Sequence record: PQ351811
Reading direction: 5' to 3' (one strand)
DNA from: Shigella phage SSG23
Length of the DNA: 64,000 bases
Positions within the stretch are counted from its first letter, which is position 1. Every line of letters begins with the position of its first letter. The position numbers and the translations under genes are program-made. Below are positions 1 to 63,607 of this stretch, piece after piece. Under the pieces are notes generated by a model that ran no database searches, was not told the origin of the DNA, and saw only the letters and a program-made list of their open reading frames with translations.

Positions 1-2
1 AA

Positions 3-26
3 AGGGGGCTTTAAAGCCCCCTTTTC
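3..26 (+). terminator. rho-independent terminator ending a gene upstream of the window
   Basis: inverted repeat agggggct/agccccct followed by tttt. Confidence 0.55.
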
Positions 27-49
27 ATCCAACTATTGAGGATAATACT

Positions 50-355
50 ATGAAAGATATTACTTTTGAGTTTACCCGCGAAATTCTCCCAATGCTTCGA
101 AAGTCTCTACTTAAGCTAGAGAACAGTAATTATGATGTATATTTTTACATCACCGAAGACCTAGAGATCCTTTACGCTGATTATCCAGGTCCGATCCGTA
201 CCTTCGAAACCGCATCAAAATATAAAAATGTGCACGGTCACACGCACTGGTTACGAGAAAATTCAGTCAAGAAAGCACGCGTTAAAGTGATTGCGATTGA
301 CGTAACGCCGGAACATGCCGACCAGATTGCACAGAATGATTATCTGTCTAAATGA
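50..355 (+). CDS. hypothetical early protein (101 aa)
   Basis: ATG start with SD gagga upstream; terminator directly downstream; no recognisable motif. Confidence 0.6.
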   Translation: MKDITFEFTREILPMLRKSLLKLENSNYDVYFYITEDLEILYADYPGPIRTFETASKYKNVHGHTHWLRENSVKKARVKVIAIDVTPEHADQIAQNDYLSK

Positions 356-362
356 TTTTATT

Positions 363-387
363 AGCCGACCTTAGTGTCGGCTTTTTA
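363..387 (+). terminator. rho-independent terminator
   Basis: hairpin agccgac-ctta-gtgtcggct followed by ttttt. Confidence 0.65.
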
Positions 388-410
388 TTGCATAAAATTT
401 TAAAAAGTCA

Positions 411-439
411 TTGACACCAGAACACACCTATAGCATAAT
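411..439 (+). promoter_or_regulatory. PeSL-like early sigma70 promoter (TTGACA, 17-nt spacer, CATAAT) with conserved leader
   Basis: ttgaca 411-416, cataat 434-439, then cacacatcgaaacga..aggagaatcaaa leader shared with other copies. Confidence 0.65.
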
Positions 440-479
440 ACACACATCGAAACGAGATACTACTTAGGAGAATCAAACA

Positions 480-749
480 ATGGCACTGACTAAAACCACT
501 ACCAACTTTGCAAAACGCCACGGCTTCGACCTTGAAATCAACAGCTTTAATGATTACACTCTTCTGTGTGTATATGAAATCGAAAATGATTGCGAGTGGA
601 TGTTCAGCTATCGCGTAAACGAAGACGGGTCTTTCACTTGGAACGGAAATATCTATCTTGCGCAGGAAGTAAAAGAAGAACTTCCAGCGACTATCAAAGA
701 TGAGAAGCATTTACGTCAAGTTTTAAAATTTATTTCTGAAAATATCTAA
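480..749 (+). CDS. hypothetical early protein (89 aa)
   Basis: ORF behind PeSL-like promoter and SD aggaga. Confidence 0.65.
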   Translation: MALTKTTTNFAKRHGFDLEINSFNDYTLLCVYEIENDCEWMFSYRVNEDGSFTWNGNIYLAQEVKEELPATIKDEKHLRQVLKFISENI

Positions 750-756
750 AAAGTTG

Positions 757-785
757 TTGACACCAAAGTAAGAACATAGCATAAT
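757..785 (+). promoter_or_regulatory. PeSL-like early sigma70 promoter
   Basis: ttgaca 757-762, cataat 780-785, leader tacacccataccgaaacga. Confidence 0.65.
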
Positions 786-818
786 ACACCCATACCGAAA
801 CGAACTGGAGAGTCAAAA

Positions 819-1100
819 ATGAAATTCATCAAAGCAACCGAGATCCTGAACAACAAAGAAGCGTACATTGGCAACATCGTTGGTATGAACATTCGCGGCG
901 CTGGTAGCCAGTGGACCAAACTGGTTGATGTTAAAGCTAAAGGCGATAAAATCGAGTTCACTGTAAAAATGCTTACTCATAACGCACATATGGGTATCAA
1001 GACAAAAACGATGGCAGCAGATAAAAGCATCAACTATCAAGATCTGGGCGATTGGCTGAACTGGTGCAAAATGTACAATATCGAAACTAATCACGAATAA
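819..1100 (+). CDS. hypothetical early protein (93 aa)
   Basis: ORF behind PeSL-like promoter; SD ggagag. Confidence 0.65.
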   Translation: MKFIKATEILNNKEAYIGNIVGMNIRGAGSQWTKLVDVKAKGDKIEFTVKMLTHNAHMGIKTKTMAADKSINYQDLGDWLNWCKMYNIETNHE

Positions 1101-1113
1101 TTTTAAAAAGTTG

Positions 1114-1142
1114 TTGACGGGGATCGGGAGATCCCCTATAAT
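1114..1142 (+). promoter_or_regulatory. PeSL-like early promoter with spacer hairpin
   Basis: ttgacg 1114-1119, palindrome ggggatcgggagatcccc in spacer, tataat 1137-1142. Confidence 0.65.
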
Positions 1143-1175
1143 GCACACATACCGAAACGAAATAGGAGAATCAAA

Positions 1176-1343
1176 ATGTTCGAGACTAAAGCAGCATGTG
1201 AAGCATATATCATTGAAACCCACGGCGAAGATTATCTGAAATTTGACATTGTAGTAGCACAGAAGATTGTAGGGATGGTTGCGAAATACCTCGGAGTTAA
1301 AGAAGGTTACTATCCTAGCAACGCACCAGAAATTAACAAATAA
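1176..1343 (+). CDS. hypothetical small early protein (55 aa), not in ORF track
   Basis: ATG 1176 after leader aggagaatcaaa; stop taa 1341-1343; sits between two promoter cassettes. Confidence 0.55.
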   Translation: MFETKAACEAYIIETHGEDYLKFDIVVAQKIVGMVAKYLGVKEGYYPSNAPEINK

Positions 1344-1357
1344 TTTTATAAAAAGTG

Positions 1358-1386
1358 TTGACAGGGGAGGATAACTCCCCTACAAT
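1358..1386 (+). promoter_or_regulatory. PeSL-like early promoter with spacer hairpin
   Basis: ttgaca 1358-1363, palindrome ggggaggataactcccc, tacaat 1381-1386. Confidence 0.65.
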
Positions 1387-1426
1387 ACAACCATCAAGAC
1401 GAGATACCACTTAGGAGAATCAAACA

Positions 1427-1678
1427 ATGGCTAACATCGAAACCGCAAAGAAAATCGCTAAAGACCTGAACGTTAAAGGCTTCCGTAAACTGAAATTACA
1501 GCGTGTACGCTACACCGTCGGCAAACAGTGCTCTTTCATGAGCGAAGAAGTTGCTAACAGCCTCATTGATAACCTTATTGCGGCTGGCTGGGAAGTTGCG
1601 GATCTGAAAACTTGCCGCGAACTGGCTAACAAAGGTCTTTTAGATTCTGTTACTATCAAACCAATGGGGGCAGCGTGA
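1427..1678 (+). CDS. hypothetical early protein (83 aa)
   Basis: ORF behind PeSL-like promoter; SD aggaga. Confidence 0.65.
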   Translation: MANIETAKKIAKDLNVKGFRKLKLQRVRYTVGKQCSFMSEEVANSLIDNLIAAGWEVADLKTCRELANKGLLDSVTIKPMGAA

Positions 1679-1920
1679 AAAGAAAATTAATTAAACGAAA
1701 TAAGGAATTGTTGAATAACTGCATTAAGGACGCTAATGGTTGGCCTTTGTTCCTCTTCCTTTATGATCGACATTCTAAACAATCGGCTGAGGAAGCACGA
1801 CACTATAAGAAGATCAGAAAAGAATCATATACAAAACAAGGACGCATTAACGGAATTTACTTAATGTGGCACGGCAAAGAACCTTCTAAAATCTGTGTTG
1901 GGTTAAAGGGGCGTATATGA
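1675..1920 (+). CDS. hypothetical protein (81 aa), GTG start overlapping upstream stop
   Basis: only a GTG start is available (GTGA overlap), ggggg upstream; basic protein; translationally coupled position. Confidence 0.35.
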   Translation: MKRKLIKRNKELLNNCIKDANGWPLFLFLYDRHSKQSAEEARHYKKIRKESYTKQGRINGIYLMWHGKEPSKICVGLKGRI

Positions 1921-2633
1921 AACAAAAATTAATATTCTGCAACTTTGACGGATCGGGGATAATGGGGCTAGAATGGGCTAAAGCAGGTCATAAGGTGATC
2001 TGCTTTAATGCGGATGACGCCGACCACGGTACATACAAAAAGTATAATACCAGATTTGAACATCCAAACATTACCTATGTAAACACCTGGATTGATTTGA
2101 ACTGGCTGGAAAGAGCAATGGACCTTGAATGGGGGAAACCGGATATTATATTTGCATTCCCACCTTGCACCAATTTAGCTGTTAGTGGCGCTGCACACTT
2201 TGAACGAAAGAAAAGAGAGCAAGGACCATTAATTCAAGTTCATGATGTAAGGGCAGCTAAAATAACAGCTTATTTGGGCGAATGGTTAGGAGTTCCCTAC
2301 ATGATAGAGAATCCTGTAAGCGTTATCTCTAGCATGTGGCGTAAGCCTGATTACATGTTCCACCCGTGGGAATATGGCGGTTATTTGCCGGAAAATGATA
2401 TACATCCTACGTTTCCTGAGTATATTGCCGCCCGTGATATGTACCCGAAAAAGACTTGCTTATGGACCGGACAAGGCTTTATAATGCCAGAAAAGAAACC
2501 GTTGCCGATTAATAAAGGGTACAGTAAACAGCATTCTAAGCTAGGCGGGAAAGGAACCAGAACAAAGACTATCAGGTCACTTACCCCGCGAGGATTCGCA
2601 AAGGCAGTATTTGAAGCCAATAAGGATCTATGA
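1917..2633 (+). CDS. C5-cytosine methyltransferase-like protein (238 aa)
   Basis: motifs in C5-MTase order: FCNFDGSG (motif I-like), FPPCTNLAVSG (PC motif with catalytic Cys), MIENP (ENV-like); short region after the ENV motif. Confidence 0.5.
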   Translation: MKQKLIFCNFDGSGIMGLEWAKAGHKVICFNADDADHGTYKKYNTRFEHPNITYVNTWIDLNWLERAMDLEWGKPDIIFAFPPCTNLAVSGAAHFERKKREQGPLIQVHDVRAAKITAYLGEWLGVPYMIENPVSVISSMWRKPDYMFHPWEYGGYLPENDIHPTFPEYIAARDMYPKKTCLWTGQGFIMPEKKPLPINKGYSKQHSKLGGKGTRTKTIRSLTPRGFAKAVFEANKDL

Positions 2634-2962
2634 TGAGATTGTTTAAGTATTCGCTAACGTCAAATTATGACAAACAAGGTCATTGTATCCGTTGCCCTGA
2701 TTGCCATAGTCATAACATCGAAAGCAAGATCCGTGATCATATTGATGGACTTTGGTCGCCAGCAAGCGAGATAGAATACTATTGCGCTGATTGCGGAATT
2801 GTAGTAGCATATTGGGCATACGGATCATATGATCCCTACTTCCAGATGGGAGAGCGTTCAATCCCTGCGCTTATCTGGAGAATTAAGAACAATATCCGCC
2901 ATTCATGGGATGAGTTCTTAAAAGATATTGATTTACGTGATGATCCATTCAGGAGACTATAA
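2630..2962 (+). CDS. zinc-ribbon protein (110 aa), possibly HNH-like
   Basis: CxxCxxC..H..H then CxxC in translation; ATGA overlap with upstream gene. Confidence 0.55.
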   Translation: MMRLFKYSLTSNYDKQGHCIRCPDCHSHNIESKIRDHIDGLWSPASEIEYYCADCGIVVAYWAYGSYDPYFQMGERSIPALIWRIKNNIRHSWDEFLKDIDLRDDPFRRL

Positions 2963-2963
2963 C

Positions 2964-3482
2964 ATGAACCGTTTGACGCCTAAACGCCGTTACTATACCA
3001 ATACTAAAAACTTTGTCATCTCTGTTTATGAGGCATGGTTAGAAGATGGCTATATCAACATGAACCCAGATTATCAGCGTCCTTTGGTATGGGACACCGA
3101 AAACAAACGTATGTTTATCGAGAACATGATTAATGACTTTCCGGTCGGCGCTATCGCAATGGCTAAGATTGATGATGGCTCTCGCTATGAAATCGAAATC
3201 GTGGACGGCAAACAGCGTTTAAACGCAATATTCTCATTCATGAAGGATGAGTTTAGCATTGCGGGTAATGATGATTCTATGCTGTATTACAGCGATTTTA
3301 CGCCAGCAGAAAAGCGACGTTTCCGCAATCTAGGACTACCAGCGATCATGATGGAAGAGAGCACACGAGAAGATCGATTAGAATATTTCTACAAAACAAA
3401 CTTTTTCGGTGTGCCTCAATCAGAAGATCATCGCCAGCATGTGATTGCCCTATTGCAAGATGAGCAATTAAAAAATAACTAA
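2964..3482 (+). CDS. DUF262 (ParB-like / GmrS N-terminal type) domain protein
   Basis: PDYQRPLVW and IVDGKQRL motifs; start moved to ATG 2964 with SD aggaga 7 nt upstream. Confidence 0.6.
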   Translation: MNRLTPKRRYYTNTKNFVISVYEAWLEDGYINMNPDYQRPLVWDTENKRMFIENMINDFPVGAIAMAKIDDGSRYEIEIVDGKQRLNAIFSFMKDEFSIAGNDDSMLYYSDFTPAEKRRFRNLGLPAIMMEESTREDRLEYFYKTNFFGVPQSEDHRQHVIALLQDEQLKNN

Positions 3483-3489
3483 AAAGTTG

Positions 3490-3519
3490 TTGACAGGGGA
3501 TCATCGATCCCCCTATAAT
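3490..3519 (+). promoter_or_regulatory. PeSL-like early promoter with spacer hairpin
   Basis: ttgaca 3490-3495, palindrome ggggatcatcgatcccc, tataat 3514-3519. Confidence 0.65.
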
Positions 3520-3551
3520 GCACACATACCGAAACGAAAGGAGAATCAAAC

Positions 3552-3731
3552 ATGAAACACTTAACCATCGAATCAGCAATCATCGCAATCGCTAAAGTTC
3601 AAGCGGCTTATAATTGCACTGACCTTGAAGCAATTTCAAAAATGCAAGCGGCAGCAGCAAAAGCGGGTGATGAAAAATCTTTAGATGTTCTCTGCGAAAT
3701 CAAATCAGAATTAATTTCAAAAATGTTCTAA
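3552..3731 (+). CDS. hypothetical small early protein (59 aa), not in ORF track
   Basis: ATG 3552 after leader aggagaatcaaac; stop taa 3729-3731. Confidence 0.55.
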   Translation: MKHLTIESAIIAIAKVQAAYNCTDLEAISKMQAAAAKAGDEKSLDVLCEIKSELISKMF

Positions 3732-3737
3732 AAGTTG

Positions 3738-3766
3738 TTGACACGCGATAGGGTGTATAGCATAAT
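3738..3766 (+). promoter_or_regulatory. PeSL-like early promoter
   Basis: ttgaca 3738-3743, cataat 3761-3766, leader tacacccataccgaaaca. Confidence 0.65.
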
Positions 3767-3806
3767 ACACCCATACCGAAACACGAACCACTAAGGAGTA
3801 TCAAAA

Positions 3807-4019
3807 ATGGCTAACATCGAAATCATCATCACCGACGTAACTTATGACCGCATCAACGAAATCGGTACTGCATTACTAGAAGATGGAACAACCCGCACCA
3901 TCAACTATGCAGAATACGTTGAAATGCGCGGTTGTATTAAACGAGTAGGAAAATACATCCTGATTGAAAAAGACTATTCAGGATACACATTAGAGCAATT
4001 ACTTGCTGGTGCATTATAA
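3807..4019 (+). CDS. hypothetical early protein (70 aa)
   Basis: ORF behind PeSL-like promoter; SD aaggag. Confidence 0.6.
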   Translation: MANIEIIITDVTYDRINEIGTALLEDGTTRTINYAEYVEMRGCIKRVGKYILIEKDYSGYTLEQLLAGAL

Positions 4020-4022
4020 TTT

Positions 4023-4046
4023 AAGGGGGCGTCAAGCCCCTTTTTC
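4023..4046 (+). terminator. rho-independent terminator
   Basis: aagggggc..gcccctt hairpin followed by ttttt. Confidence 0.6.
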
Positions 4047-4086
4047 ATAAATATAGGTTTATAGGTTATCAACTAGAGGATATAAA

Positions 4087-6138
4087 ATGTTTAACTTAGA
4101 AATCGACGATCTAATGATTGAATCTTTCGAGAAATGGCTGTTAACGGAAGAGGAAGAAAACTTTGGCAGCATTGCTCCGGTACAGTGCTTAAAGCCTAAA
4201 CAGAATCCAAAACAGCTTTTTGCAGTACAGACACGCGATAAAGATGTAATTGTCCGTCTTTGTAACTTCACCAACAAAACACCTAAAATTATTCGTGTTG
4301 GCGATAAAACCGCACACGTTGTACTGTGTGAAATGAACAAAAGCGGTCGTATTGTACAGCTTAAAAATGGTCTAGGCGATAACCCGATTGCAGTTATGGC
4401 AAGTGCTTTTGATGTGGTTATGGAAACAGCCCGTAAAGCGCAATTAGATGCTGTTATGTTCCGTTTTAACGTGTCCCGCATGAAAGGTAAAACCGAACTG
4501 GTTAAACGCGTTATAGAGCGTTTAGTGCGTCGTACTCCTAAGTTTGAAGTATTCCAGCAGGAAGTAATGACCAGCAAAAAGATCGCTTTGGTTGTTGTCA
4601 AGCGTCGCGGGATGGCGATTGATAAGATTAAAGGGATTAAACTTGATGAATCCTTGTTCACTAAAGTAGAAAGTGATTTAGGTGATCGCTGGGTATCTAA
4701 GGCTACTGGTGAATCTCTGACTAAAGATGAGGCGTATGCGGCTAGTCTTGTGTCGGAAGAAGAACGAAACGCGGAAGCAGAACAACGCGTAGCGGCTAAA
4801 TCTCGTTTGACTAAAGAAGAAATGCTGAAAACTCAAGCGACCTATAACGGTGATTATGTTAATCATCCAGAAAAAATTAACCTTAAACCGGAAGAGGATA
4901 TTACCGAAGCCGAACCTAAGAAACAGTTTAATACTCTGATCGATCGTCAAGCCTTAGAACGTTCAACCGCCCGTTCTTTGAATGATTGGACAAATGATAT
5001 TATCACTCGCTATGGTTTCATGCGTACTATTTTTGAAAGCGAAGCCGATGCAAAATACGCAGTAAGCGAACTGGTAAAAGTTCAGGATCAATATGATCCG
5101 TTGTCTGCGGAAGTTATCGCAGCATCAATCAAACGCTTAAAAGAAATCATGAATGAAGAAGTGTTTGAAAACAAGATCACCGCCCTAGCAATGGATCGCG
5201 TCGACCAGTCTATGCCAGCAGATGTAAAAGCTGAAATGCTGCGTAGTCACATCACGCAGATTAAAACCGATGCCCTACGTAATGTTGCTTCCGGTATGTT
5301 TGAAGCGATTGCAAGTAACATGGGTGAAATGATGGCAGATATTGATCTTGACCTGCCTGGCGCGGAAGGTTTTGTGTTGAGCGAATATGCGGATGCAGCA
5401 TACATCAATATGAACAACTTCCTAACCGACCGTAAGTTGGAAGAGTTTGACGGTATTGCAGACCCAGAAGAATTGGTCAAGATGTGTGATGCACTGGATA
5501 ATGCCTTCGCTAACTATGGTGTTAAACTTGATCCAGGTACTATCTTGTATCGTGGTATGGACTTCCGTTCTCAAATGTGGGAAACTGCACGTAAGCAAAA
5601 AGCGTTTTACTTTAAAAACTATGTAAGCACTTCCCTTGCACCTAATATTTTTGGTGGCTGGAATGCAAACGTGGCTAGTGCCGTTGCTGGTGTTGATTCT
5701 ATGGCGGGATCTCGCGGTGAAGGTGGCGCTAATGTTGCTTTCTCCATTGCTGGCGCGGAAAACATCCCTGTATTGCCAGTAGGTAACAAAGCATTTGCGT
5801 ACAAAGAATGCGAGATTTTACTTCCTCGCGGTGTTGTGTTATCCTTTGATACGGTAACTCGTGCTACGGCATCGACGGATTCACAAGAAACTTATTACAT
5901 TGAGGCACATATTATGAACAAAAATGAACTGGCAGCATTACAAGAATCTGGTGAGATGATCGCGGACGGTGATGCATTCATCCGTGAAGGTGTTGTTAAA
6001 CCTGCTTCTGACCTGTCTTTCTCCAGCTTCATTACCGAAGCTAAAACCGAACGTAAGAAAGCAGATAAGGCAACTCTACGTCAGCTTATCGCTGATCTGG
6101 TATCTGTAGACGCTATGCCAGATAAATTTAAAATGTAA
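4087..6138 (+). CDS. alt: Alt-like ADP-ribosyltransferase (683 aa)
   Basis: R-S-ExE motifs (YRGMDFR, YVSTSLAP, ECEILLPRG); T4 Alt is about this size; lies next to gene 54 as in T4. Confidence 0.8.
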   Translation: MFNLEIDDLMIESFEKWLLTEEEENFGSIAPVQCLKPKQNPKQLFAVQTRDKDVIVRLCNFTNKTPKIIRVGDKTAHVVLCEMNKSGRIVQLKNGLGDNPIAVMASAFDVVMETARKAQLDAVMFRFNVSRMKGKTELVKRVIERLVRRTPKFEVFQQEVMTSKKIALVVVKRRGMAIDKIKGIKLDESLFTKVESDLGDRWVSKATGESLTKDEAYAASLVSEEERNAEAEQRVAAKSRLTKEEMLKTQATYNGDYVNHPEKINLKPEEDITEAEPKKQFNTLIDRQALERSTARSLNDWTNDIITRYGFMRTIFESEADAKYAVSELVKVQDQYDPLSAEVIAASIKRLKEIMNEEVFENKITALAMDRVDQSMPADVKAEMLRSHITQIKTDALRNVASGMFEAIASNMGEMMADIDLDLPGAEGFVLSEYADAAYINMNNFLTDRKLEEFDGIADPEELVKMCDALDNAFANYGVKLDPGTILYRGMDFRSQMWETARKQKAFYFKNYVSTSLAPNIFGGWNANVASAVAGVDSMAGSRGEGGANVAFSIAGAENIPVLPVGNKAFAYKECEILLPRGVVLSFDTVTRATASTDSQETYYIEAHIMNKNELAALQESGEMIADGDAFIREGVVKPASDLSFSSFITEAKTERKKADKATLRQLIADLVSVDAMPDKFKM

Positions 6139-6155
6139 TTTTTAAGAAATAATGG

Positions 6156-6196
6156 TTGACTCAAACGGGGACTAGTTTTATACTAGCCCCGTTTTC
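6156..6196 (+). promoter_or_regulatory. terminator hairpin overlapping a sigma70-type promoter
   Basis: ttgact 6156-6161, tatact 6179-6184; hairpin cggggactagt/actagccccg followed by tttt. Confidence 0.55.
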
Positions 6197-6216
6197 TGTT
6201 ATATGGGAGGTTTAAA

Positions 6217-7041
6217 ATGTTCAAGAAATTACAGGATTTTCGCCTTTCAGAAGAATCACGCGAATCAATGATGGAACGTATGGATAATTACATCGAAACA
6301 TATGGCATTGAGGGGATTAATGGTTACATGATCACTGAAATGATCAGCGATCATATTAACTTTGATGATTACGTGAAAGTTATCCGTTTCCTTGAGCGCG
6401 AGACGCAAGATTATGGATTTGTCAAGAAGATCATTAATGTTATGTACGAAGTGCAATCCGAAGACTTTGGAGACAGTGTATTCAAGCATTATGGTCATAC
6501 CAATCTTACACCAGCAGAATATAATGCAATCTGTGATTATGTGTCTGAACAATACGAATGGGTAAATGGTGCTCTCTTAGGGGAAGAAGACATGACCGAC
6601 GAGATATCAGAAATTGTTGATTTGATGGATTGCGTCATGGATAAAACCGAAAAGTTAAACGGTACTCTTTATCGCGGTCAACATCTTGACATTCAGACAA
6701 TAGAGCGTATTATTGAAGATAAGGAATTTACATTTAAAAACTTTGTATCGACCAGCATGACACCGATCATCTTTGGAGGCTGGCTTTCAAACAGCACTAG
6801 CCTTTATTGTGAGAATCGATATGAATCAATGACCGGAAAGATGCAACATTCTTGTAATGTATCATGGGTAATTGACGTAAAAGATCATAAAGGTTTTGTT
6901 GTTGGGTCAATTGCATGGAATCCTTGCGAATGTGAAGTAATTTTACCGCGCGGGACTTGCATCAAGGTAAACGACGTAGTAGAATCTTTCGGCGATGAGA
7001 ATCGTAGACAATTTACAATTTTCGGTGAGGTGACTAAATGA
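6217..7041 (+). CDS. second ADP-ribosyltransferase, short Alt/Mod-like paralogue (274 aa)
   Basis: R-S-ExE motifs (LYRGQHLD, FVSTSMTP, ECEVILPRG); SD gggagg. Confidence 0.7.
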   Translation: MFKKLQDFRLSEESRESMMERMDNYIETYGIEGINGYMITEMISDHINFDDYVKVIRFLERETQDYGFVKKIINVMYEVQSEDFGDSVFKHYGHTNLTPAEYNAICDYVSEQYEWVNGALLGEEDMTDEISEIVDLMDCVMDKTEKLNGTLYRGQHLDIQTIERIIEDKEFTFKNFVSTSMTPIIFGGWLSNSTSLYCENRYESMTGKMQHSCNVSWVIDVKDHKGFVVGSIAWNPCECEVILPRGTCIKVNDVVESFGDENRRQFTIFGEVTK

Positions 7042-7523
7042 AAATGGTTAAACTGATTGGTCTTGCGGCTGCATTCATGCTTACTGGTTGTGCTAACATG
7101 GAAGCTATGATGAATGCTAAATCAGATCCGGTTTTCTTGCTTCGTGAATGTAAAGCAGCATATGCAAGCGATGATCAGATCGAATCATGCTTTATTTCTA
7201 AAATGGAACGTCGAGACGTGGATCGCGTTAAAGTTGGTTTAGCACCACAAACGCAGATGTTCAAAGATGCAATCAAAGAAGCGCGGGAAGAGAAAGCACG
7301 AGAAGAAAAGAAGCGTCAAGAAGAATTGCGCAAGCAACAAGAAGAGTCTATACAACTTGAGAAGATGAAAGCAAGGGATCGTTGTATTATCATGTCTGAC
7401 ATGCAGATAGAACAAGAAGCTAGAAAGGCAGCATTGAACGGTGATTATGACCGTTATGAAGAACTTAACAGCGCAGAGTTTCAAGCTAAGGCACTAAAAT
7501 ATTGCAATGATTTAGCAAAATAA
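7038..7523 (+). CDS. lipoprotein with charged coiled-coil region (161 aa)
   Basis: signal peptide with lipobox LTGC; KEAREEKAREEKKRQEELRKQQEE tract; ATGA overlap with upstream gene. Confidence 0.6.
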   Translation: MKMVKLIGLAAAFMLTGCANMEAMMNAKSDPVFLLRECKAAYASDDQIESCFISKMERRDVDRVKVGLAPQTQMFKDAIKEAREEKAREEKKRQEELRKQQEESIQLEKMKARDRCIIMSDMQIEQEARKAALNGDYDRYEELNSAEFQAKALKYCNDLAK

Positions 7524-7550
7524 AAAGGCGGGGATTATCCCCGCCTTTCG
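7524..7550. terminator. bidirectional terminator between convergent genes
   Basis: ggcggggattatccccgcc hairpin flanked by A-run and T-run. Confidence 0.65.
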
Positions 7551-7554
7551 CTTA

Positions 7555-8487
7555 TCAGAACCAGTTAGTGACAGTATTCACCACACGCCCACCAACGCCA
7601 TTTAGACGCGATAAAGCATTACCAGCAGCAGATAACCCACTATCAAGTAAATTGTTGCCGAAAGTGTTTGTTATTGCGTTTATTGCCTTATCCTCAATCC
7701 ATTCCCGCGCGGCTTGCTCTCCTACAGCACCAGTTTGCATAGAACGATATGCAAAAGTAACATCGAATGTTGTGATTTCGTTGTTATTTTCATAGGTTAA
7801 TTCCGGTGCACTCACACCAACAGGAACACAACCATTAAACATCATGATCGTGTGAGGAACTCCCATTCGGTTATGCAAGTTGACCTGAATATCTGCTTCA
7901 ACGTCAACAGGAAGCGCACGAAGCCCTGTAACGGGGTCTTCTACTGAGTTAACCCAATCCTGCATTGCTCTATAGTTTGATGCGCTAGAGTCCATTCTAA
8001 AGCTCAATACAAGCGGATCAAAATCACGTCCGGTAATTCTAATGTTTGGCGCATTGTGGTTACGGTCCATTTCATAACTCAATCTGTTTTCTGGAACCTT
8101 AACAGCATACACCAGAAGACCGCTTGTCTTATATGCCATATTGAACCAGTCAAGCGCATATGTACCAACATCAAATTGTCCCAGAAGAGATTGAACTACA
8201 CGAGATGACATTGCACCCAAAAGATACTTTTTGACACCGGATGAATCAACAGCACGCCTAACACCCTGTACAGCAAGATTAGTTAATGCGTCAGTATAAT
8301 CACCGCGAGTAATCCCGAAATAGTCATTTAATGCATTTGGTATAATATCATATACCGCACCGCCCATACTTTCTAGGATCGCTTGTGTCTTATTACTTGG
8401 AGTGGTGGCAAATGCCACGCTGAATAAGTTAGATCGCTGAAAGTCAAGGTTAGCGGCTTGTTCGTTAAAATCATTTAAATCAAACAT
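7555..8487 (-). CDS. 54: baseplate tail tube initiator gp54
   Basis: size and position in 29-48-54 order as in T4; ATG verified. Confidence 0.75.
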   Translation of the reverse strand: MFDLNDFNEQAANLDFQRSNLFSVAFATTPSNKTQAILESMGGAVYDIIPNALNDYFGITRGDYTDALTNLAVQGVRRAVDSSGVKKYLLGAMSSRVVQSLLGQFDVGTYALDWFNMAYKTSGLLVYAVKVPENRLSYEMDRNHNAPNIRITGRDFDPLVLSFRMDSSASNYRAMQDWVNSVEDPVTGLRALPVDVEADIQVNLHNRMGVPHTIMMFNGCVPVGVSAPELTYENNNEITTFDVTFAYRSMQTGAVGEQAAREWIEDKAINAITNTFGNNLLDSGLSAAGNALSRLNGVGGRVVNTVTNWF

Positions 8488-20694: not shown

Positions 20695-20709
20695 ATGGAG
20701 TGGCTTTAT

Positions 20710-21936
20710 ATGGCTTTCACAGTATCAATTAAATCAAACAAAAGATGTTTTCTTGCTGGAGATGGTTTCACATTAACAGCGACTGTAGCAGGTGACGAAC
20801 CATTACCCAGCAATTTGACCTATACATGGACAAAAGACAACAAACCGCATGAAAATAACACCGCTACGCTAACCGTAGAAGGTGCAACAAGTGAAAATGC
20901 GGGTAACTATAAAGTCACTGTACAAGATACCGACAGCGGGGAATCTGTAGAATCTGACGTTTTCCGCATGGAAGAAGCTGAATTAATCGTTAAGATCACC
21001 GAACCGCCGCAATTCTATGTTCCTACTCACACAGACGTAGAATTACACGCAACCGTCAAATTTTCTGGCGGGAAGACTCCAACAGACAACTATGAACTAC
21101 ATTATAGTTGGAGTAAGGGCGAAGAAGTTATAGACACAACACAGGATATCACGATCCAAGAATTTACAGCAGATAACAACGGTGTGTATACTGTAAAAGT
21201 ATGGGGAGAATCGGAAGATTCAGCCGATAGCGCATCGACTAAAATCATGCTAGCAACAATGAGCGTAGAACAGGATGTGGTGGCATCAAAGACCGTAGCA
21301 CTAGGTAAGGAGATCTTACTTAATTATGTTGTGTCAGAGGACATTGTAGGCGATTCTAGCGGTATGCCTAAATTGACTATCAAACATAACTGGTATTTGC
21401 AACGTGAAGGACAGCCGTCACCGACTCTGATCGGTAGTGAGGTCGGCGAAGCACTGGAAGGATTTTCTATCATGCCAGATGGTCATCTGTTCAAAGAGCG
21501 TGCTACTTACGACGATACAGCCAAATTCTGGTGTGTTGCTAAACTATATCAACAGATCGAAGACGCAACAGTAGAACTTGCAGCACGTACAAGCAGAAAA
21601 TGTTCAATGGAAGTTGTTGAATCTCTTCATAAAATGTTCCGTTATGTGCACCCGATCCCGTGGCGCAAAACTTCATTCATCTATATTGGATGGTGGGTAT
21701 TTGACGAGATTGTTAAATTCAATGAGGCTGGGTTAGAGTGGCGTCACCGAGAAGTTTATTCAACCAGCAAGTACGCCAAAGATCTGGAGACAATCGCGGC
21801 AGCGGAAGAAAAATATAGTGATTGCACTTGCATGGAATCTCGCAATGGTTTCATGTATCAGTCCAAAGAGTTCCATAAACTGGACCGAGAGACGTTAGAG
21901 CGAGTTCTACGCATTCGTGAAACGCCTCCTGCTTAA
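20710..21936 (+). CDS. hoc: Hoc-like outer capsid protein, T4-sized with 3 Ig-like domains
   Basis: MAFTVSIKS N-terminus resembles remembered T4 Hoc MTFTVDITP; C-terminal YVHPIPWRKTSF..ESRNGF; start moved from 20695 to ATG 20710. Confidence 0.85.
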   Translation: MAFTVSIKSNKRCFLAGDGFTLTATVAGDEPLPSNLTYTWTKDNKPHENNTATLTVEGATSENAGNYKVTVQDTDSGESVESDVFRMEEAELIVKITEPPQFYVPTHTDVELHATVKFSGGKTPTDNYELHYSWSKGEEVIDTTQDITIQEFTADNNGVYTVKVWGESEDSADSASTKIMLATMSVEQDVVASKTVALGKEILLNYVVSEDIVGDSSGMPKLTIKHNWYLQREGQPSPTLIGSEVGEALEGFSIMPDGHLFKERATYDDTAKFWCVAKLYQQIEDATVELAARTSRKCSMEVVESLHKMFRYVHPIPWRKTSFIYIGWWVFDEIVKFNEAGLEWRHREVYSTSKYAKDLETIAAAEEKYSDCTCMESRNGFMYQSKEFHKLDRETLERVLRIRETPPA

Positions 21937-22131: not shown

Positions 22132-22329
22132 ATGAATGATATTGTACGACTGATCGAAGTTACACCGCTTTCGGTTTATATCCTAGTGCTGGTTGCAACA
22201 ATGTGCTACCAGCTAGCGGCGTGTAGTGTATGGAAGTCAGAAAACGCGTTTATCCGGTTTATTGGCACTATCATGATTCAGTTTCCGGTTATGATCACTA
22301 TCCTGTTAATCGTCAATGGGGCGAAGTGA
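22132..22329 (+). CDS. small membrane protein (65 aa)
   Basis: SD gaggtgaag; two hydrophobic segments. Confidence 0.5.
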   Translation: MNDIVRLIEVTPLSVYILVLVATMCYQLAACSVWKSENAFIRFIGTIMIQFPVMITILLIVNGAK

Positions 22330-22604
22330 TGGACAAGAAAACTGCGTTAATGGTTTACATGCTACGCGAAGACCACGGTCTTAATTTTGTTGATATTGCT
22401 AAGAAGATTGGCGGGATCAGCGGACAAGATGCGGCTAAGGCATGGTTGATGGTAAAAGACGCACGCGAGGCTTACGCCAACCGTGAAAAGGTTGTTTATC
22501 GTAAACACCACATCAACAAAAAATTTAAAAATAAAGTTCAAAAACGGGTTGACAAGCCAAATAACACTGTTATAATGGACGCATTCAAACGGGCAATGTC
22601 CTGA
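22329..22604 (+). CDS. small basic protein, possible HTH DNA-binding (91 aa)
   Basis: ATG 22329 overlaps upstream stop (TGATG); LNFVDIAKKIGGISGQDAAKAW helix-turn-helix-like segment; basic C-terminus. Confidence 0.45.
   Translation: MDKKTALMVYMLREDHGLNFVDIAKKIGGISGQDAAKAWLMVKDAREAYANREKVVYRKHHINKKFKNKVQKRVDKPNNTVIMDAFKRAMS
22549..22576 (+). promoter_or_regulatory. sigma70-type promoter inside the 3' end of the preceding gene
   Basis: ttgaca 22549-22554, 16-nt spacer, tataat 22571-22576. Confidence 0.55.
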
Positions 22605-22650: not shown

Positions 22651-23088
22651 ATGAAATTCCGTAAAAACCACGTAGCAATGAAAAAAGCAATGTTCGAAGC
22701 GTTCAAAGCAGTTGATCATGGCGGTGTTACTCTGATTGAGCAAATTAATGTTGATGTTTGGCAATCTCCGGCGATCACTTGCTCACGTCTGGCGACGGCT
22801 GGTCTTCTGAACGTTCATAGCTCTACCGCATACGACGAAGCATTGCAAGTTATTAAGGCTTTCGCTGGCGACGTTACCAGTAAGTGGGTCTATGAGAATA
22901 AAGGTGAAATTGCGGTTGCTCATGTAGGCAACAATATCCAGATGGAAATCAAGATTAAGGAAGGGTCTAAACGCAATCAGATGCTTGTTCGCTTCCAGCC
23001 ATACAAAACTAACGTAGTGCCGGATGATCTGATCATCTCTAAGAGCAATGTTACCATTCGCCGAAATCAGATCGTTATCAACAAATAA
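22651..23088 (+). CDS. hypothetical protein (145 aa)
   Basis: SD agaggtga; terminator downstream. Confidence 0.6.
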   Translation: MKFRKNHVAMKKAMFEAFKAVDHGGVTLIEQINVDVWQSPAITCSRLATAGLLNVHSSTAYDEALQVIKAFAGDVTSKWVYENKGEIAVAHVGNNIQMEIKIKEGSKRNQMLVRFQPYKTNVVPDDLIISKSNVTIRRNQIVINK

Positions 23089-49472: not shown

Positions 49473-49717
49473 TTTCTATCACTCCACATACCGAAAGTTG
49501 GATTATACACAAAATGTATAGCTTCATCAATAGTCTTGAATCGTTTAGTTACGTTAGCGCAATTGATACCCTCCCATAGTTCATCGGTGTAATCGGCTAG
49601 TGATGAATGAGTATGATCGATGAGTTCCCCGATCTTCTCACCGTTCGCGATCACCTCCCAACCGCAAGGGGATACCTGAATTGCTTCACAATTATCTGTA
49701 AATTTACGACGTGCCAT
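49460..49717 (-). CDS. hypothetical protein (85 aa), first gene of the cassette
   Basis: ATG with SD ggagg; sigma70-type promoter upstream. Confidence 0.55.
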   Translation of the reverse strand: MARRKFTDNCEAIQVSPCGWEVIANGEKIGELIDHTHSSLADYTDELWEGINCANVTKRFKTIDEAIHFVYNPTFGMWSDRKWHA

Positions 49718-49746
49718 AATTTATCCTCCGTTGTTTATATGTGTGT

Positions 49747-49774
49747 ATTATACCTTACCAAATAAGATTGTCAA
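49747..49774 (-). promoter_or_regulatory. PeSL-like early sigma70 promoter on the - strand inside the late baseplate cluster
   Basis: - strand reads ttgaca, 16-nt spacer, tataat, then acacacatataaacaacggaggataaattATG. Confidence 0.6.
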
Positions 49775-49786
49775 CACCCAAAATAG

Positions 49787-49816
49787 AAAAAGCCAACTCT
49801 CTCGAATTGGCTTTTA
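49787..49816 (-). terminator. terminator-like hairpin after gp8
   Basis: agccaa..ttggct hairpin with a T-rich tract on the - strand. Confidence 0.45.
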
Positions 49817-62892: not shown

Positions 62893-62900
62893 TTCTATAC

Positions 62901-62930
62901 CCCGAAATTTTTTCGGGGTTTTTTGTTTTT
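62901..62930 (+). terminator. rho-independent terminator
   Basis: ccccgaaa-ttt-tttcgggg hairpin followed by a long T-run. Confidence 0.75.
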
Positions 62931-62935
62931 ATGTG

Positions 62936-62964
62936 TTGACAACCATAAACGACTATAGCATAAT
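62936..62964 (+). promoter_or_regulatory. PeSL-like early promoter
   Basis: ttgaca 62936-62941, cataat 62959-62964, leader gcacacatcgaaacga..aggagaatcaaa. Confidence 0.65.
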
Positions 62965-63004
62965 GCACACATCGAAACGAAACACACTTAGGAGAATCAA
63001 AAAA

Positions 63005-63382
63005 ATGATGATGATGTTTAAAGATAAATTCGAATGTCACTATACCCGTAACTTTGACTTAGTATCCCGCTACTACATTCATAAAGAAACTGGCACGCAA
63101 GTAGTTCTTGAATCTCACAGCGAAGTCGGATTCGATTCAACGAAAGTAGCAATTAGTGCTCGCTTCTGGGATAACGGAAAATTTGCTTATATTGCCTGGA
63201 ACGACGACGAAAATGTAATTACAGTAGCTTTCGGTGATGACTACTACACTAAAAAGACTTTTGATAGCAAGCCATCAAATGAATACCTGAAAGCGTATGT
63301 TCAGCACATGTTCCAACGTGTTCTGACCGGAATGGAAATCAATGTCATGAAAGACATTGTAGACGAAGTAAAATATTCTTAA
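63005..63382 (+). CDS. hypothetical early protein (125 aa)
   Basis: ATG 63005 right after the PeSL leader; the longer ORF-track start 62933 would overlap the promoter. Confidence 0.6.
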   Translation: MMMMFKDKFECHYTRNFDLVSRYYIHKETGTQVVLESHSEVGFDSTKVAISARFWDNGKFAYIAWNDDENVITVAFGDDYYTKKTFDSKPSNEYLKAYVQHMFQRVLTGMEINVMKDIVDEVKYS

Positions 63383-63388
63383 AAACAG

Positions 63389-63417
63389 TTGACAACATGA
63401 AACGGGGGTAGTAAGAT
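63389..63417 (+). promoter_or_regulatory. PeSL-like early promoter with spacer hairpin
   Basis: ttgaca 63389-63394, palindrome gggggtagtaagataccccc, taagat 63412-63417. Confidence 0.55.
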
Positions 63418-63448
63418 ACCCCCACAAACAAACGAAAGGAGAATCAAA

Positions 63449-63607
63449 ATGAAATTTATCGGTAAAACTTTTATGTTCGTAGCTGGTACTCTGTTTACTG
63501 CAACTCTGATAGCTGGTGGGTTGGATATCTTTACTGCCTTTGAAACTTTCGGGTATACTGTAGCGTCGGGTGCTCTCTTCGGATTAGGTTTAGCGATTAG
63601 CAAATAA
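63449..63607 (+). CDS. small hydrophobic protein (52 aa), not in ORF track
   Basis: ATG after leader aggagaatcaaa; two predicted transmembrane segments. Confidence 0.5.
   Translation: MKFIGKTFMFVAGTLFTATLIAGGLDIFTAFETFGYTVASGALFGLGLAISK

Follow-up and report, generated by a model that had tools for sequence, protein, structure and literature searches.

Promoter early stem-loops (PeSLs) were defined in the T4-like phages Phi1 and RB49 by Arbiol, Comeau, Kutateladze, Adamia and Krisch (2010, Genome Biol Evol 2:140; PMC2839356). A PeSL consists of a sigma-70-like promoter, an AT-rich upstream stretch, a stem-loop in one of five positions, a Shine-Dalgarno sequence and a start codon. The genomes of Phi1 and RB49 contain 52 and 51 PeSLs, respectively, mainly in hyperplastic regions upstream of ORFans. 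The present analysis concerns 64,000 nucleotides of Shigella phage SSG23 (record PQ351811; hereafter the window), in which a module of about 75 nt recurs between small early open reading frames (ORFs). These modules are very probably PeSLs, that is, composite regulatory cassettes of RB49/Phi1-type T4-like phages. Judged by collinearity and sequence, those at the left end are in all likelihood orthologues of the published PeSLs at their type locus, HPR3. A preliminary description of this DNA had called them PeSL-like, a claim that was borne out and even understated.

The main worked example of the published work is RB49 ORFan192 in HPR3, a region with "eight PeSLs in an ~5-kb area". Mini-circles from HPR3 carry ORF192-193 and ORF191-194, with crossovers between the -10 element and the ATG. 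The promoter of PeSL193/192 was tested, and the clones gained point mutations in the -35/-10 elements, whereas the promoter of PeSL206/205 gave ~13,000 Miller units. The only stem-loop assayed as a terminator, that of PeSL211/210, reduced lacZ expression in vivo to an extent comparable with rrnB T1 (PMC2839356). According to a passage in Nolan et al. (2006, PMC1524935) that cites Desplats et al., the consensus predicted for RB49 early promoters fits the mapped 5' ends of early transcripts; these promoters favour C at -3 to -1 (PMC1524935). The element class, this locus, its promoter and terminator activity and its role in modular shuffling were already published in 2010 and extended in 2014.

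Several other systems resemble PeSLs. In T4/PST and KVP40/nt-1, PeSL-like composite promoter/terminator motifs flank variable small genes and act as exchange points (Comeau, Arbiol and Krisch 2014, PMC4122927). The same role is ascribed to elements at the T-even internal-protein loci (Repoila et al. 1994, as cited in PMC2839356), but these are analogues and not homologues, with T4-type early promoters and weaker AT-rich stems (PMC2839356). Lambdoid morons are likewise single genes travelling with their own promoter and terminator (Hendrix et al. 2000). Integron gene cassettes also form arrays of small unrelated ORFs parted by a repeated recombination site, but require an integrase and attC sites, whereas PeSLs have no known recombinase.

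By its nucleotide matches, the window is assigned to Krischvirus (RB49/Phi1 group). Bases 1-8000 match 58 phage records, every one from a coliphage or Shigella phage of the Krischvirus group, and at blastn sensitivity the cassette sequence family is confined to Krischvirus (58 of 50,697 phage records). In each of the three stretches that were compared, identity to Shigella phage SFHK24 is 100.0%. Bases 1-8000 are collinear with Phi1 ORF197-ORF182 (95.5% identity) and align with RB49 ORF182c-197c except for insertions or deletions of ORF192 and ORF195/196. In Phi1 numbering, the gene order is ORF197, 194, 193, 191, 190, 189.1, 189, 188, 187, 186, 185, alt, 183, 182 and gp54, and the record of phage GEC-3S annotates a promoter at each orthologous cassette. 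The genus, the locus (Phi1 ORF185-197, HPR3), the architecture and the link to gain and loss of ORFans are those of the Phi1 and RB49 PeSLs, and the number per genome is similar (45 profile matches against the 52 and 51 reported). Nothing essential differs: the window has the Phi1 arrangement (no ORF192 and no ORF195/196), and one copy lacks a stem-loop. An apparent excess of about 2 kb in SFHK24, ELT3 and others relative to bases 1-8000 was rejected as an insertion, since BLAST had joined the ORF205 paralogue of copy 3 and ORF191.

Six modules are present at 398-3808 of the window, with -35 elements starting at 411, 757, 1114, 1358, 3490 and 3738 and start codons at 480, 819, 1176, 1427, 3552 and 3807. 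Each module follows the same order: the upstream stop codon, an AT-rich run, TTGACA, a spacer of 17-18 nt, a -10 element (TATAAT, CATAAT or TACAAT), a leader, AGGAGAATCAAA and ATG. The AT-rich run (TAAAAAGTTG, TTTTAAAAAG or TTTATAAAAAG) directly follows every upstream stop codon, as in the PeSL definition. The leader opens with ACAC(A/C)CATACCGAAACGA and ends with GGAGAATCAAA(N0-3)ATG. A promoter scan gave 11-12 of 12 consensus positions at 17-18 nt spacing for all six copies, and a GGAG lies 11-14 nt upstream of each cassette's ATG, so that the promoter and the Shine-Dalgarno/start-codon parts of a PeSL are both present. Two further copies lie at the right end, at 62923-63003 (cassette 7) and 63376-63450 (cassette 8).

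The recurrence of six modules in the first 3.8 kb, proposed in the preliminary description, was confirmed by profile searches, leave-one-out tests and shuffled controls. An nhmmer profile built from the eight copies scored its members at 45-65 bits (E = 1e-13 to 1e-19), and each of copies 1-7 was still recovered at 32-48 bits when omitted from the profile. The best score in 10 dinucleotide shuffles of the window was 7.2 bits. The sequence AGGAGAATCAAA (at most 1 mismatch) occurred 7 times against 0.5 expected. Whether the copies align beyond the -35 and -10 hexamers had been named as a check, and they do: copies 1-7 share 61-81% pairwise identity over about 75-85 nt, and the alignment spans the whole module. 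ORF190 and ORF185, both on the plus strand, start with the same sequence, ATGGCTAACATCGAAA (MANIE; 1427-1442 and 3807-3822), and their proteins are otherwise unrelated; the homology of copies 4 and 6 therefore extends five codons into the coding sequence.

The left-end cassettes differ mainly in their -10 elements and stems. Cassette 1 (398-479, plus strand; ORF197/ORF194) has TTGACA at 411-416, a 17-nt spacer free of any hairpin, CATAAT and a leader ending in CATCGAAACGAGATACTACTTAGGAGAATCAAACA before the ATG at 480 (promoter 11/12; 40.8 bits when omitted). A terminator-type hairpin with a T-tract lies 28 nt upstream of its -35 element and downstream of ORF197 (363-382, plus strand, from the terminator scan); it corresponds to the PeSL subclass with a stem-loop upstream of -35, and the records of GEC-3S and G2494 also mark a terminator at the corresponding site. 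Cassette 2 (744-818, plus; ORF194/ORF193) has TTGACA at 757, CATAAT, the leader CATACCGAAACGAACTGGAGAGTCAAAA and ATG at 819 (42.6 bits omitted), with a folding energy of 0.0 kcal/mol. Cassette 3 (1101-1175, plus; ORF193/ORF191) has TTGACG at 1114, the spacer hairpin GGGGATCGGGAGATCCCC at 1120-1137 (-13.9 kcal/mol, z = -3.2), TATAAT and ATG at 1176 (46.4 bits omitted). Cassette 4 (1345-1426, plus; ORF191/ORF190) has TTGACA at 1358, the spacer hairpin GGGGAGGATAACTCCCC at 1366-1382 (-13.6 kcal/mol, z = -5.0), TACAAT and ATG at 1427 (32.0 bits omitted), and is predicted to drive the five-gene block ORF190-ORF187 (1427-3482). Cassette 5 (3479-3551, plus; ORF187/ORF186) has TTGACA at 3490, an 18-nt spacer with the hairpin GGGGATCATCGATCCCC at 3497-3513 (-11.4 kcal/mol), TATAAT and ATG at 3552 (promoter 12/12; 48.0 bits omitted). 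Cassette 6 (3725-3806, plus; ORF186/ORF185) has TTGACA at 3738, CATAAT and ATG at 3807 (43.6 bits omitted); its hairpin, GGGTGTAT-AGCATA-ATACACCC at 3751-3772 (-12.1 kcal/mol, z = -3.4), overlaps the -10 element and had been missed earlier.

The preliminary description had also listed copies at 62936, 63389, 49747-49774 on the minus strand and 6166-6191. The sites at 62936, 63389 and 49774 (minus strand) do carry TTGACA and a -10 element, but only the first was recovered as strongly as the left-end copies. This is cassette 7 (62899-63004, plus; gene 57B/ORF125; 41.0 bits omitted), with a T-tract terminator hairpin at 62899-62919, TTGACA at 62936, CATAAT and ATG at 63005; in GEC-3S, both a terminator and a promoter are annotated at the corresponding positions. 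Cassette 8 (63376-63448, plus; ORF125/ORF124, upstream of dmd) stood as a divergent copy (13.0 bits when omitted), with TTGACA at 63389, TAAGAT, a leader ending in CGAAAGGAGAATCAAA and ATG at 63449. Its hairpin, GGGGGTA-GTAAGA-TACCCCC at 63404-63423 (-14.0 kcal/mol, z = -4.7), overlaps the -10 element.

The minus-strand cassette beside gp8 (49718-49815) comprises a terminator hairpin (49815-49788), TTGACA (49774-49769), 16 nt, TATAAT, the leader ACACACATATAAACAACGGAGGATAAATT and ATG at 49717. It shares the promoter, ACACACAT and GGAG with the family, but at 11-14 bits (49778-49723, never part of the model) full membership was not upheld. The genes downstream encode an 85-aa ORF, a 109-aa ORF and a 279-aa methyltransferase. 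The proposal that this gp8-gp9 set is linked to the same mechanism finds no backing in natural variation: the locus is present in 58 of 58 Krischvirus records, its cassette likeness goes little beyond the promoter, and nothing indicates that cassette exchange brought in the three genes that follow gp8.

The site at the alt/ORF183 junction (6156-6216, plus) was rejected as a member of the sequence family because the profile misses it, it is 37-49% identical to the other copies and it lacks the family leader. It has TTGACT, 17 nt, TATACT, a hairpin (CGGGGACTAGT...ACTAGCCCCG, 6166-6191, -15.3 kcal/mol) followed by TTTT, and ATG at 6217, and GEC-3S annotates a promoter there. By its predicted architecture of promoter plus stem-loop it is a PeSL outside the repeated sequence family. 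ORF183 (6217-7041, plus), which follows alt, is a second ADP-ribosyltransferase (Pfam ADPrib_exo_Tox, E = 2.3e-15), and its predicted promoter has the -10 element within the alt terminator hairpin. Another promoter, at 22537-22591 (plus), has TTGACA-N16-TATAAT and an A-rich run upstream, scores 9.6 bits and has neither the family leader nor a stem. Situated among the virion genes of the window, it follows a 413-aa ORF (20695-21936), falls within the 3'-terminal part of a 124-aa ORF (22230-22604) and precedes a 145-aa ORF (22651-23088).

Stem folding was judged against shuffled controls. The stem lies in the spacer in copies 3, 4 and 5, over the -10 element in copies 6 and 8, and upstream of -35, as a canonical T-tract terminator, in copies 1 and 7 and the minus-strand copy. 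Spacer and -10-overlapping stems have energies of about -11 to -15 kcal/mol (z = -3.2 to -5.0). A GC-rich spacer palindrome had been reported for five copies; it is found in three (1120-1137, 1366-1382 and 3497-3513), and the hairpins at 63404-63423 and 6166-6191 overlap the -10 element instead. The stem sequences vary while pairing is kept (GGGTG/CACCC, GGGGA/TCCCC, GGGAG/CTCCC, GGGGG/CCCCC, GGGGATC/GATCCCC and GGGGAG/CTCCCC). The hairpin of Phi1 PeSL211/210 is GGGGATCggtGATCCCC, reading TTGACAggggatcggtgatccccTTATAAT; copies 3 and 5 have exactly the same stem, GGGGATC/GATCCCC. PeSL206/205 is the closest paralogue of copy 3 and precedes ORF205, which is 87% identical to ORF191. Phi1, RB49, GEC-3S and Brandy retain the stem of copy 6 but vary in the spacer bases outside it.

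A genome-wide census was made with the profile on the window joined to the rest of SFHK24. This assembly comprises 168,693 bp, compared with 168,820 bp in record PQ351812; the gap of 127 bp falls between window positions 8000 and 48800, at the ends of the record, and may be an assembler overlap of a circular record. The census gave 45 matches at E < 1, of which 44 lie on the early-transcription strand. Stems overlap the -10 element in 16 cassettes, lie in the spacer in 10, form T-tract terminators upstream in seven and overlap the -35 element in one; 11 of the 45 have no stem within the searched span. Each of the 16 -10-overlapping stems encloses a 6-nt loop and stops 6-8 nt past the -10 element, and none of the 45 copies has a stem reaching more than 8 nt past it. 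A cassette's own transcript should therefore lack the stem, which only read-through from upstream would carry. In an ungapped, loop-centred alignment of 20 distinct hairpins, double-sided changes were counted at 7 of 7 pairs, a result reached by 0 of 1000 column shuffles but inflated in its paired fraction by the preselection of the sequences as hairpins.

The role of the cassettes in gene exchange was examined by comparing the window with seven relatives. In RB49 and G2494, an extra unit of cassette plus ORF192 is inserted precisely where the stop codon of ORF193 meets copy 3. ORF191 is missing from Brandy, whose single cassette at this place starts as copy 3 (flank, -35 and hairpin) and changes at the -10/start region to the leader of copy 4. 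ECD7 lacks ORF186, and its cassette starts as copy 5 and ends as copy 6, the switch falling within CATACCGAAAC. In vB_Eco_SAP (L008 4273-4432), cassette 5 (ORF187/186) is present as a perfect tandem duplicate with no ORF between the two copies, possibly a PeSL that became "empty" when crossing-over was unequal or a gene was excised. The SAP tandem cassette is annotated as a spurious 38-aa coding sequence. The junctions in Brandy, ECD7, RB49/G2494 and SAP are what homologous exchange from cassette to cassette predicts, and the cassettes thus appear to be sites of insertion, deletion or exchange of the ORFs that they flank. The same holds for RB49, Brandy and SAP, in which the terminator plus copy 1 is duplicated and ORF195/196 lies between the duplicates. 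Both window ends had been described as hyperplastic early regions. The left end is supported by insertions and deletions among the relatives. The right end is the start of the early ORFan region of Phi1 ORF102-125, but no insertion or deletion was seen at its two cassettes (57B/ORF125 and ORF125/ORF124) within the window.

The following mechanism is proposed. Each cassette, which lies between the stop codon of a small early gene and the next gene's start codon, would present a near-consensus sigma-70 promoter with an AT-rich upstream stretch to the unmodified host RNA polymerase immediately after infection. Transcription would probably start at an A about 7 nt past the -10 element, giving an A/C-rich, unstructured leader of about 30-40 nt in which GGAGAATCAAA(N0-3)ATG would supply the ribosome-binding site. 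The stem-loop, a G-run paired with a C-run at or just before the expected start, would be absent from the cassette's own mRNA and appear only at the 3' end of incoming upstream transcripts. There it would attenuate or terminate these transcripts, and possibly stabilise or process them, and so insulate each small gene as its own unit. Because nearly identical sequence of about 75 nt recurs every few hundred bases, phage homologous recombination could cross over between cassettes, so that single ORFs would be deleted, inserted or swapped and a functional hybrid cassette left behind. The repeat family, the stems and their positions, the orthology and the natural cassette-to-cassette junctions come from the present analysis, whereas promoter activity, terminator activity (for a stem as in copies 3 and 5) and the mini-circles from this locus are taken from the literature.

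Besides the preselection of hairpins, several points weigh against this mechanism. Copy 2, alone among the copies, gave no stem-loop on folding and fails the strict "promoter plus stem-loop" definition of a PeSL. Promoter and terminator activity would be carried over here from paralogues and orthologues. Spacer and -10-overlapping hairpins have no U-tract (tails UAUAAUGC or AUACCGAA; 26 of the 34 census hairpins lack one), and a terminator scan of window positions 1-7500 flagged none of them, so that canonical intrinsic termination is uncertain. The published reduction of lacZ could equally reflect RNA processing or destabilisation. The recombination role is deduced from junctions, and ordinary homologous recombination between any repeats would suffice to produce the same pattern, so that no dedicated "mobile element" mechanism is required. 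Constraint stronger than that on coding sequence was sought and not seen: over their whole length, orthologous cassettes diverge at roughly the rate of the flanking ORFs (5.7-6.6% compared with 4.2-4.4%).

One alternative, which the missing U-tracts favour, is that the stem-loops are not terminators. They could be 3'-end protectors or RNase III-type sites at the RNA level, or DNA palindromes that a recombination protein or a structure-specific one would recognise, such as endonuclease VII, which the genome encodes; the palindromes would then make the cassettes recombination hot spots. This is unlikely, though it is the most serious of the alternatives, because the hairpin sharing the stem of copies 3 and 5 cut lacZ expression about as strongly as rrnB T1 did in vivo. 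Most of the mapped crossovers lie outside the stem, either between the -10 element and the ATG or within the AT-rich flank, and the confinement of the stems to at most 8 nt past the -10 element fits an RNA-level role on incoming transcripts.

A less probable explanation, to which little credence is given, is that the modules are ordinary early promoters with similar leaders, alike through the shared demands of sigma-70, an unstructured leader and a strong ribosome-binding site, and without a role in rearrangement. The divergence figures given above agree with it, as do the lack of an associated recombinase (PMC2839356) and the lack of presence/absence variation, in 58 genomes, at the 49.7-kb and right-end copies. 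Against it, the likeness of 61-81% over about 80 nt covers positions on which no constraint is known to act (GCACACATACCGAAACGAAA and the AT-rich flank, for example), Brandy and ECD7 show clean cassette chimeras at their deletions, SAP has an empty tandem cassette, and mini-circles with crossovers inside these very cassettes have been sequenced (PMC2839356). That the repeats are remnants of tandem duplication of promoter-plus-gene units, alike by descent together with their genes, is very improbable and was rejected: copy 3 with ORF191 does have an 85% identical paralogue in PeSL206/205 with ORF205 (87% amino-acid identity), and ORF197 has a 35% identical paralogue, but, ORF191/ORF205 excepted, no two cargo ORFs resemble each other significantly (best non-self blastp E = 0.26) while the cassettes are 61-81% identical, so that the repeats are not a by-product of gene duplication.

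The end of the cassette leader resembles a further regulatory site. The sequence GGAGAATCAAA occurs 19 times on the early strand of the joined genome, 18 of them in cassettes, and not at all on the other strand, with 0.1 expected. In the window it is found at 466-477, 1164-1175, 1413-1424, 3539-3550, 62990-63001 and 63437-63448. The consensus of strong T4 RegB/S1 sites is GG*AGRAYARAA (PMC3014915), and GGAGAATCAAA agrees with it at 10 of 11 positions, position 8 being C and not A. RegB is encoded outside the window (L014:7793-8212; Pfam REGB_T4, E = 4.6e-48), and the RegB of RB49 is a divergent member of its family (PMC3014915). The cassette leaders thus resemble the T4 RegB/S1 sites in carrying the motif 11-14 nt upstream of early-gene start codons in a genome that encodes RegB, but differ at position 8 and are predicted sites only. 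The PeSL papers PMC2839356 and PMC4122927 do not mention RegB, and no link between RegB and PeSLs was found in the literature searched. A tentative reading, given rather less than even chances, is that the cassette would act as a three-part expression timer in which the promoter switches the gene on at infection, the stem-loop insulates it and RegB/S1 cleavage at GGAGAATCAAA inactivates the mRNA minutes later. Alternatively, GGAGAATCAAA may be no more than an efficient ribosome-binding site that came along with the cassette. About six cassettes outside the window (assembled genome positions 82793, 86941, 88176, 130676, 148859 and 153995) have a different leader, with GAGGATTATATTATG in place of GGAGAATCAAA at its end, which suggests at least two leader subfamilies.

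The cargo of the left-end cassettes consists of small early genes (ORF194, 193, 191, 190, 189.1, 189, 188, 187, 186 and 185; 480-4019, plus strand). The six ORFs driven directly by a cassette matched no Pfam family and only PHROGs of "unknown function". ORF187 (172 aa, 2964-3482, plus) contains a GmrSD_N/DUF262 domain (Pfam E = 8.6e-20) with a DGKQR motif, and ORF189 matches PHROG 757 "DNA methyltransferase" (E = 6e-91) with no Pfam match. ORF189 and the zinc-ribbon-like ORF188 (1917-2633 and 2630-2962) lie with ORF187 in one predicted operon driven by cassette 4. The methyltransferase and the ParB/GmrSD-N-like protein may form a candidate anti-restriction or DNA-modification module.

As a discovery, the presence of these cassettes carries little weight, since PeSLs have been known at exactly this locus since 2010, and the copy 6 stem-loop over the -10 element is a modest addition. 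For annotation, the cassettes mark 1-4 kb and 62.9-64 kb of the window as immediate-early ORFan regions, and they explain differences among Krischvirus isolates in the presence or absence of single genes. The Brandy and ECD7 chimeras, the empty SAP cassette, the stem ends and the RegB-like site are small additions that could inform work on the regulation and exchange of accessory genes in T4-like phages. If the timer reading is true, a gene captured between two cassettes would automatically gain "immediate-early, then off" regulation.

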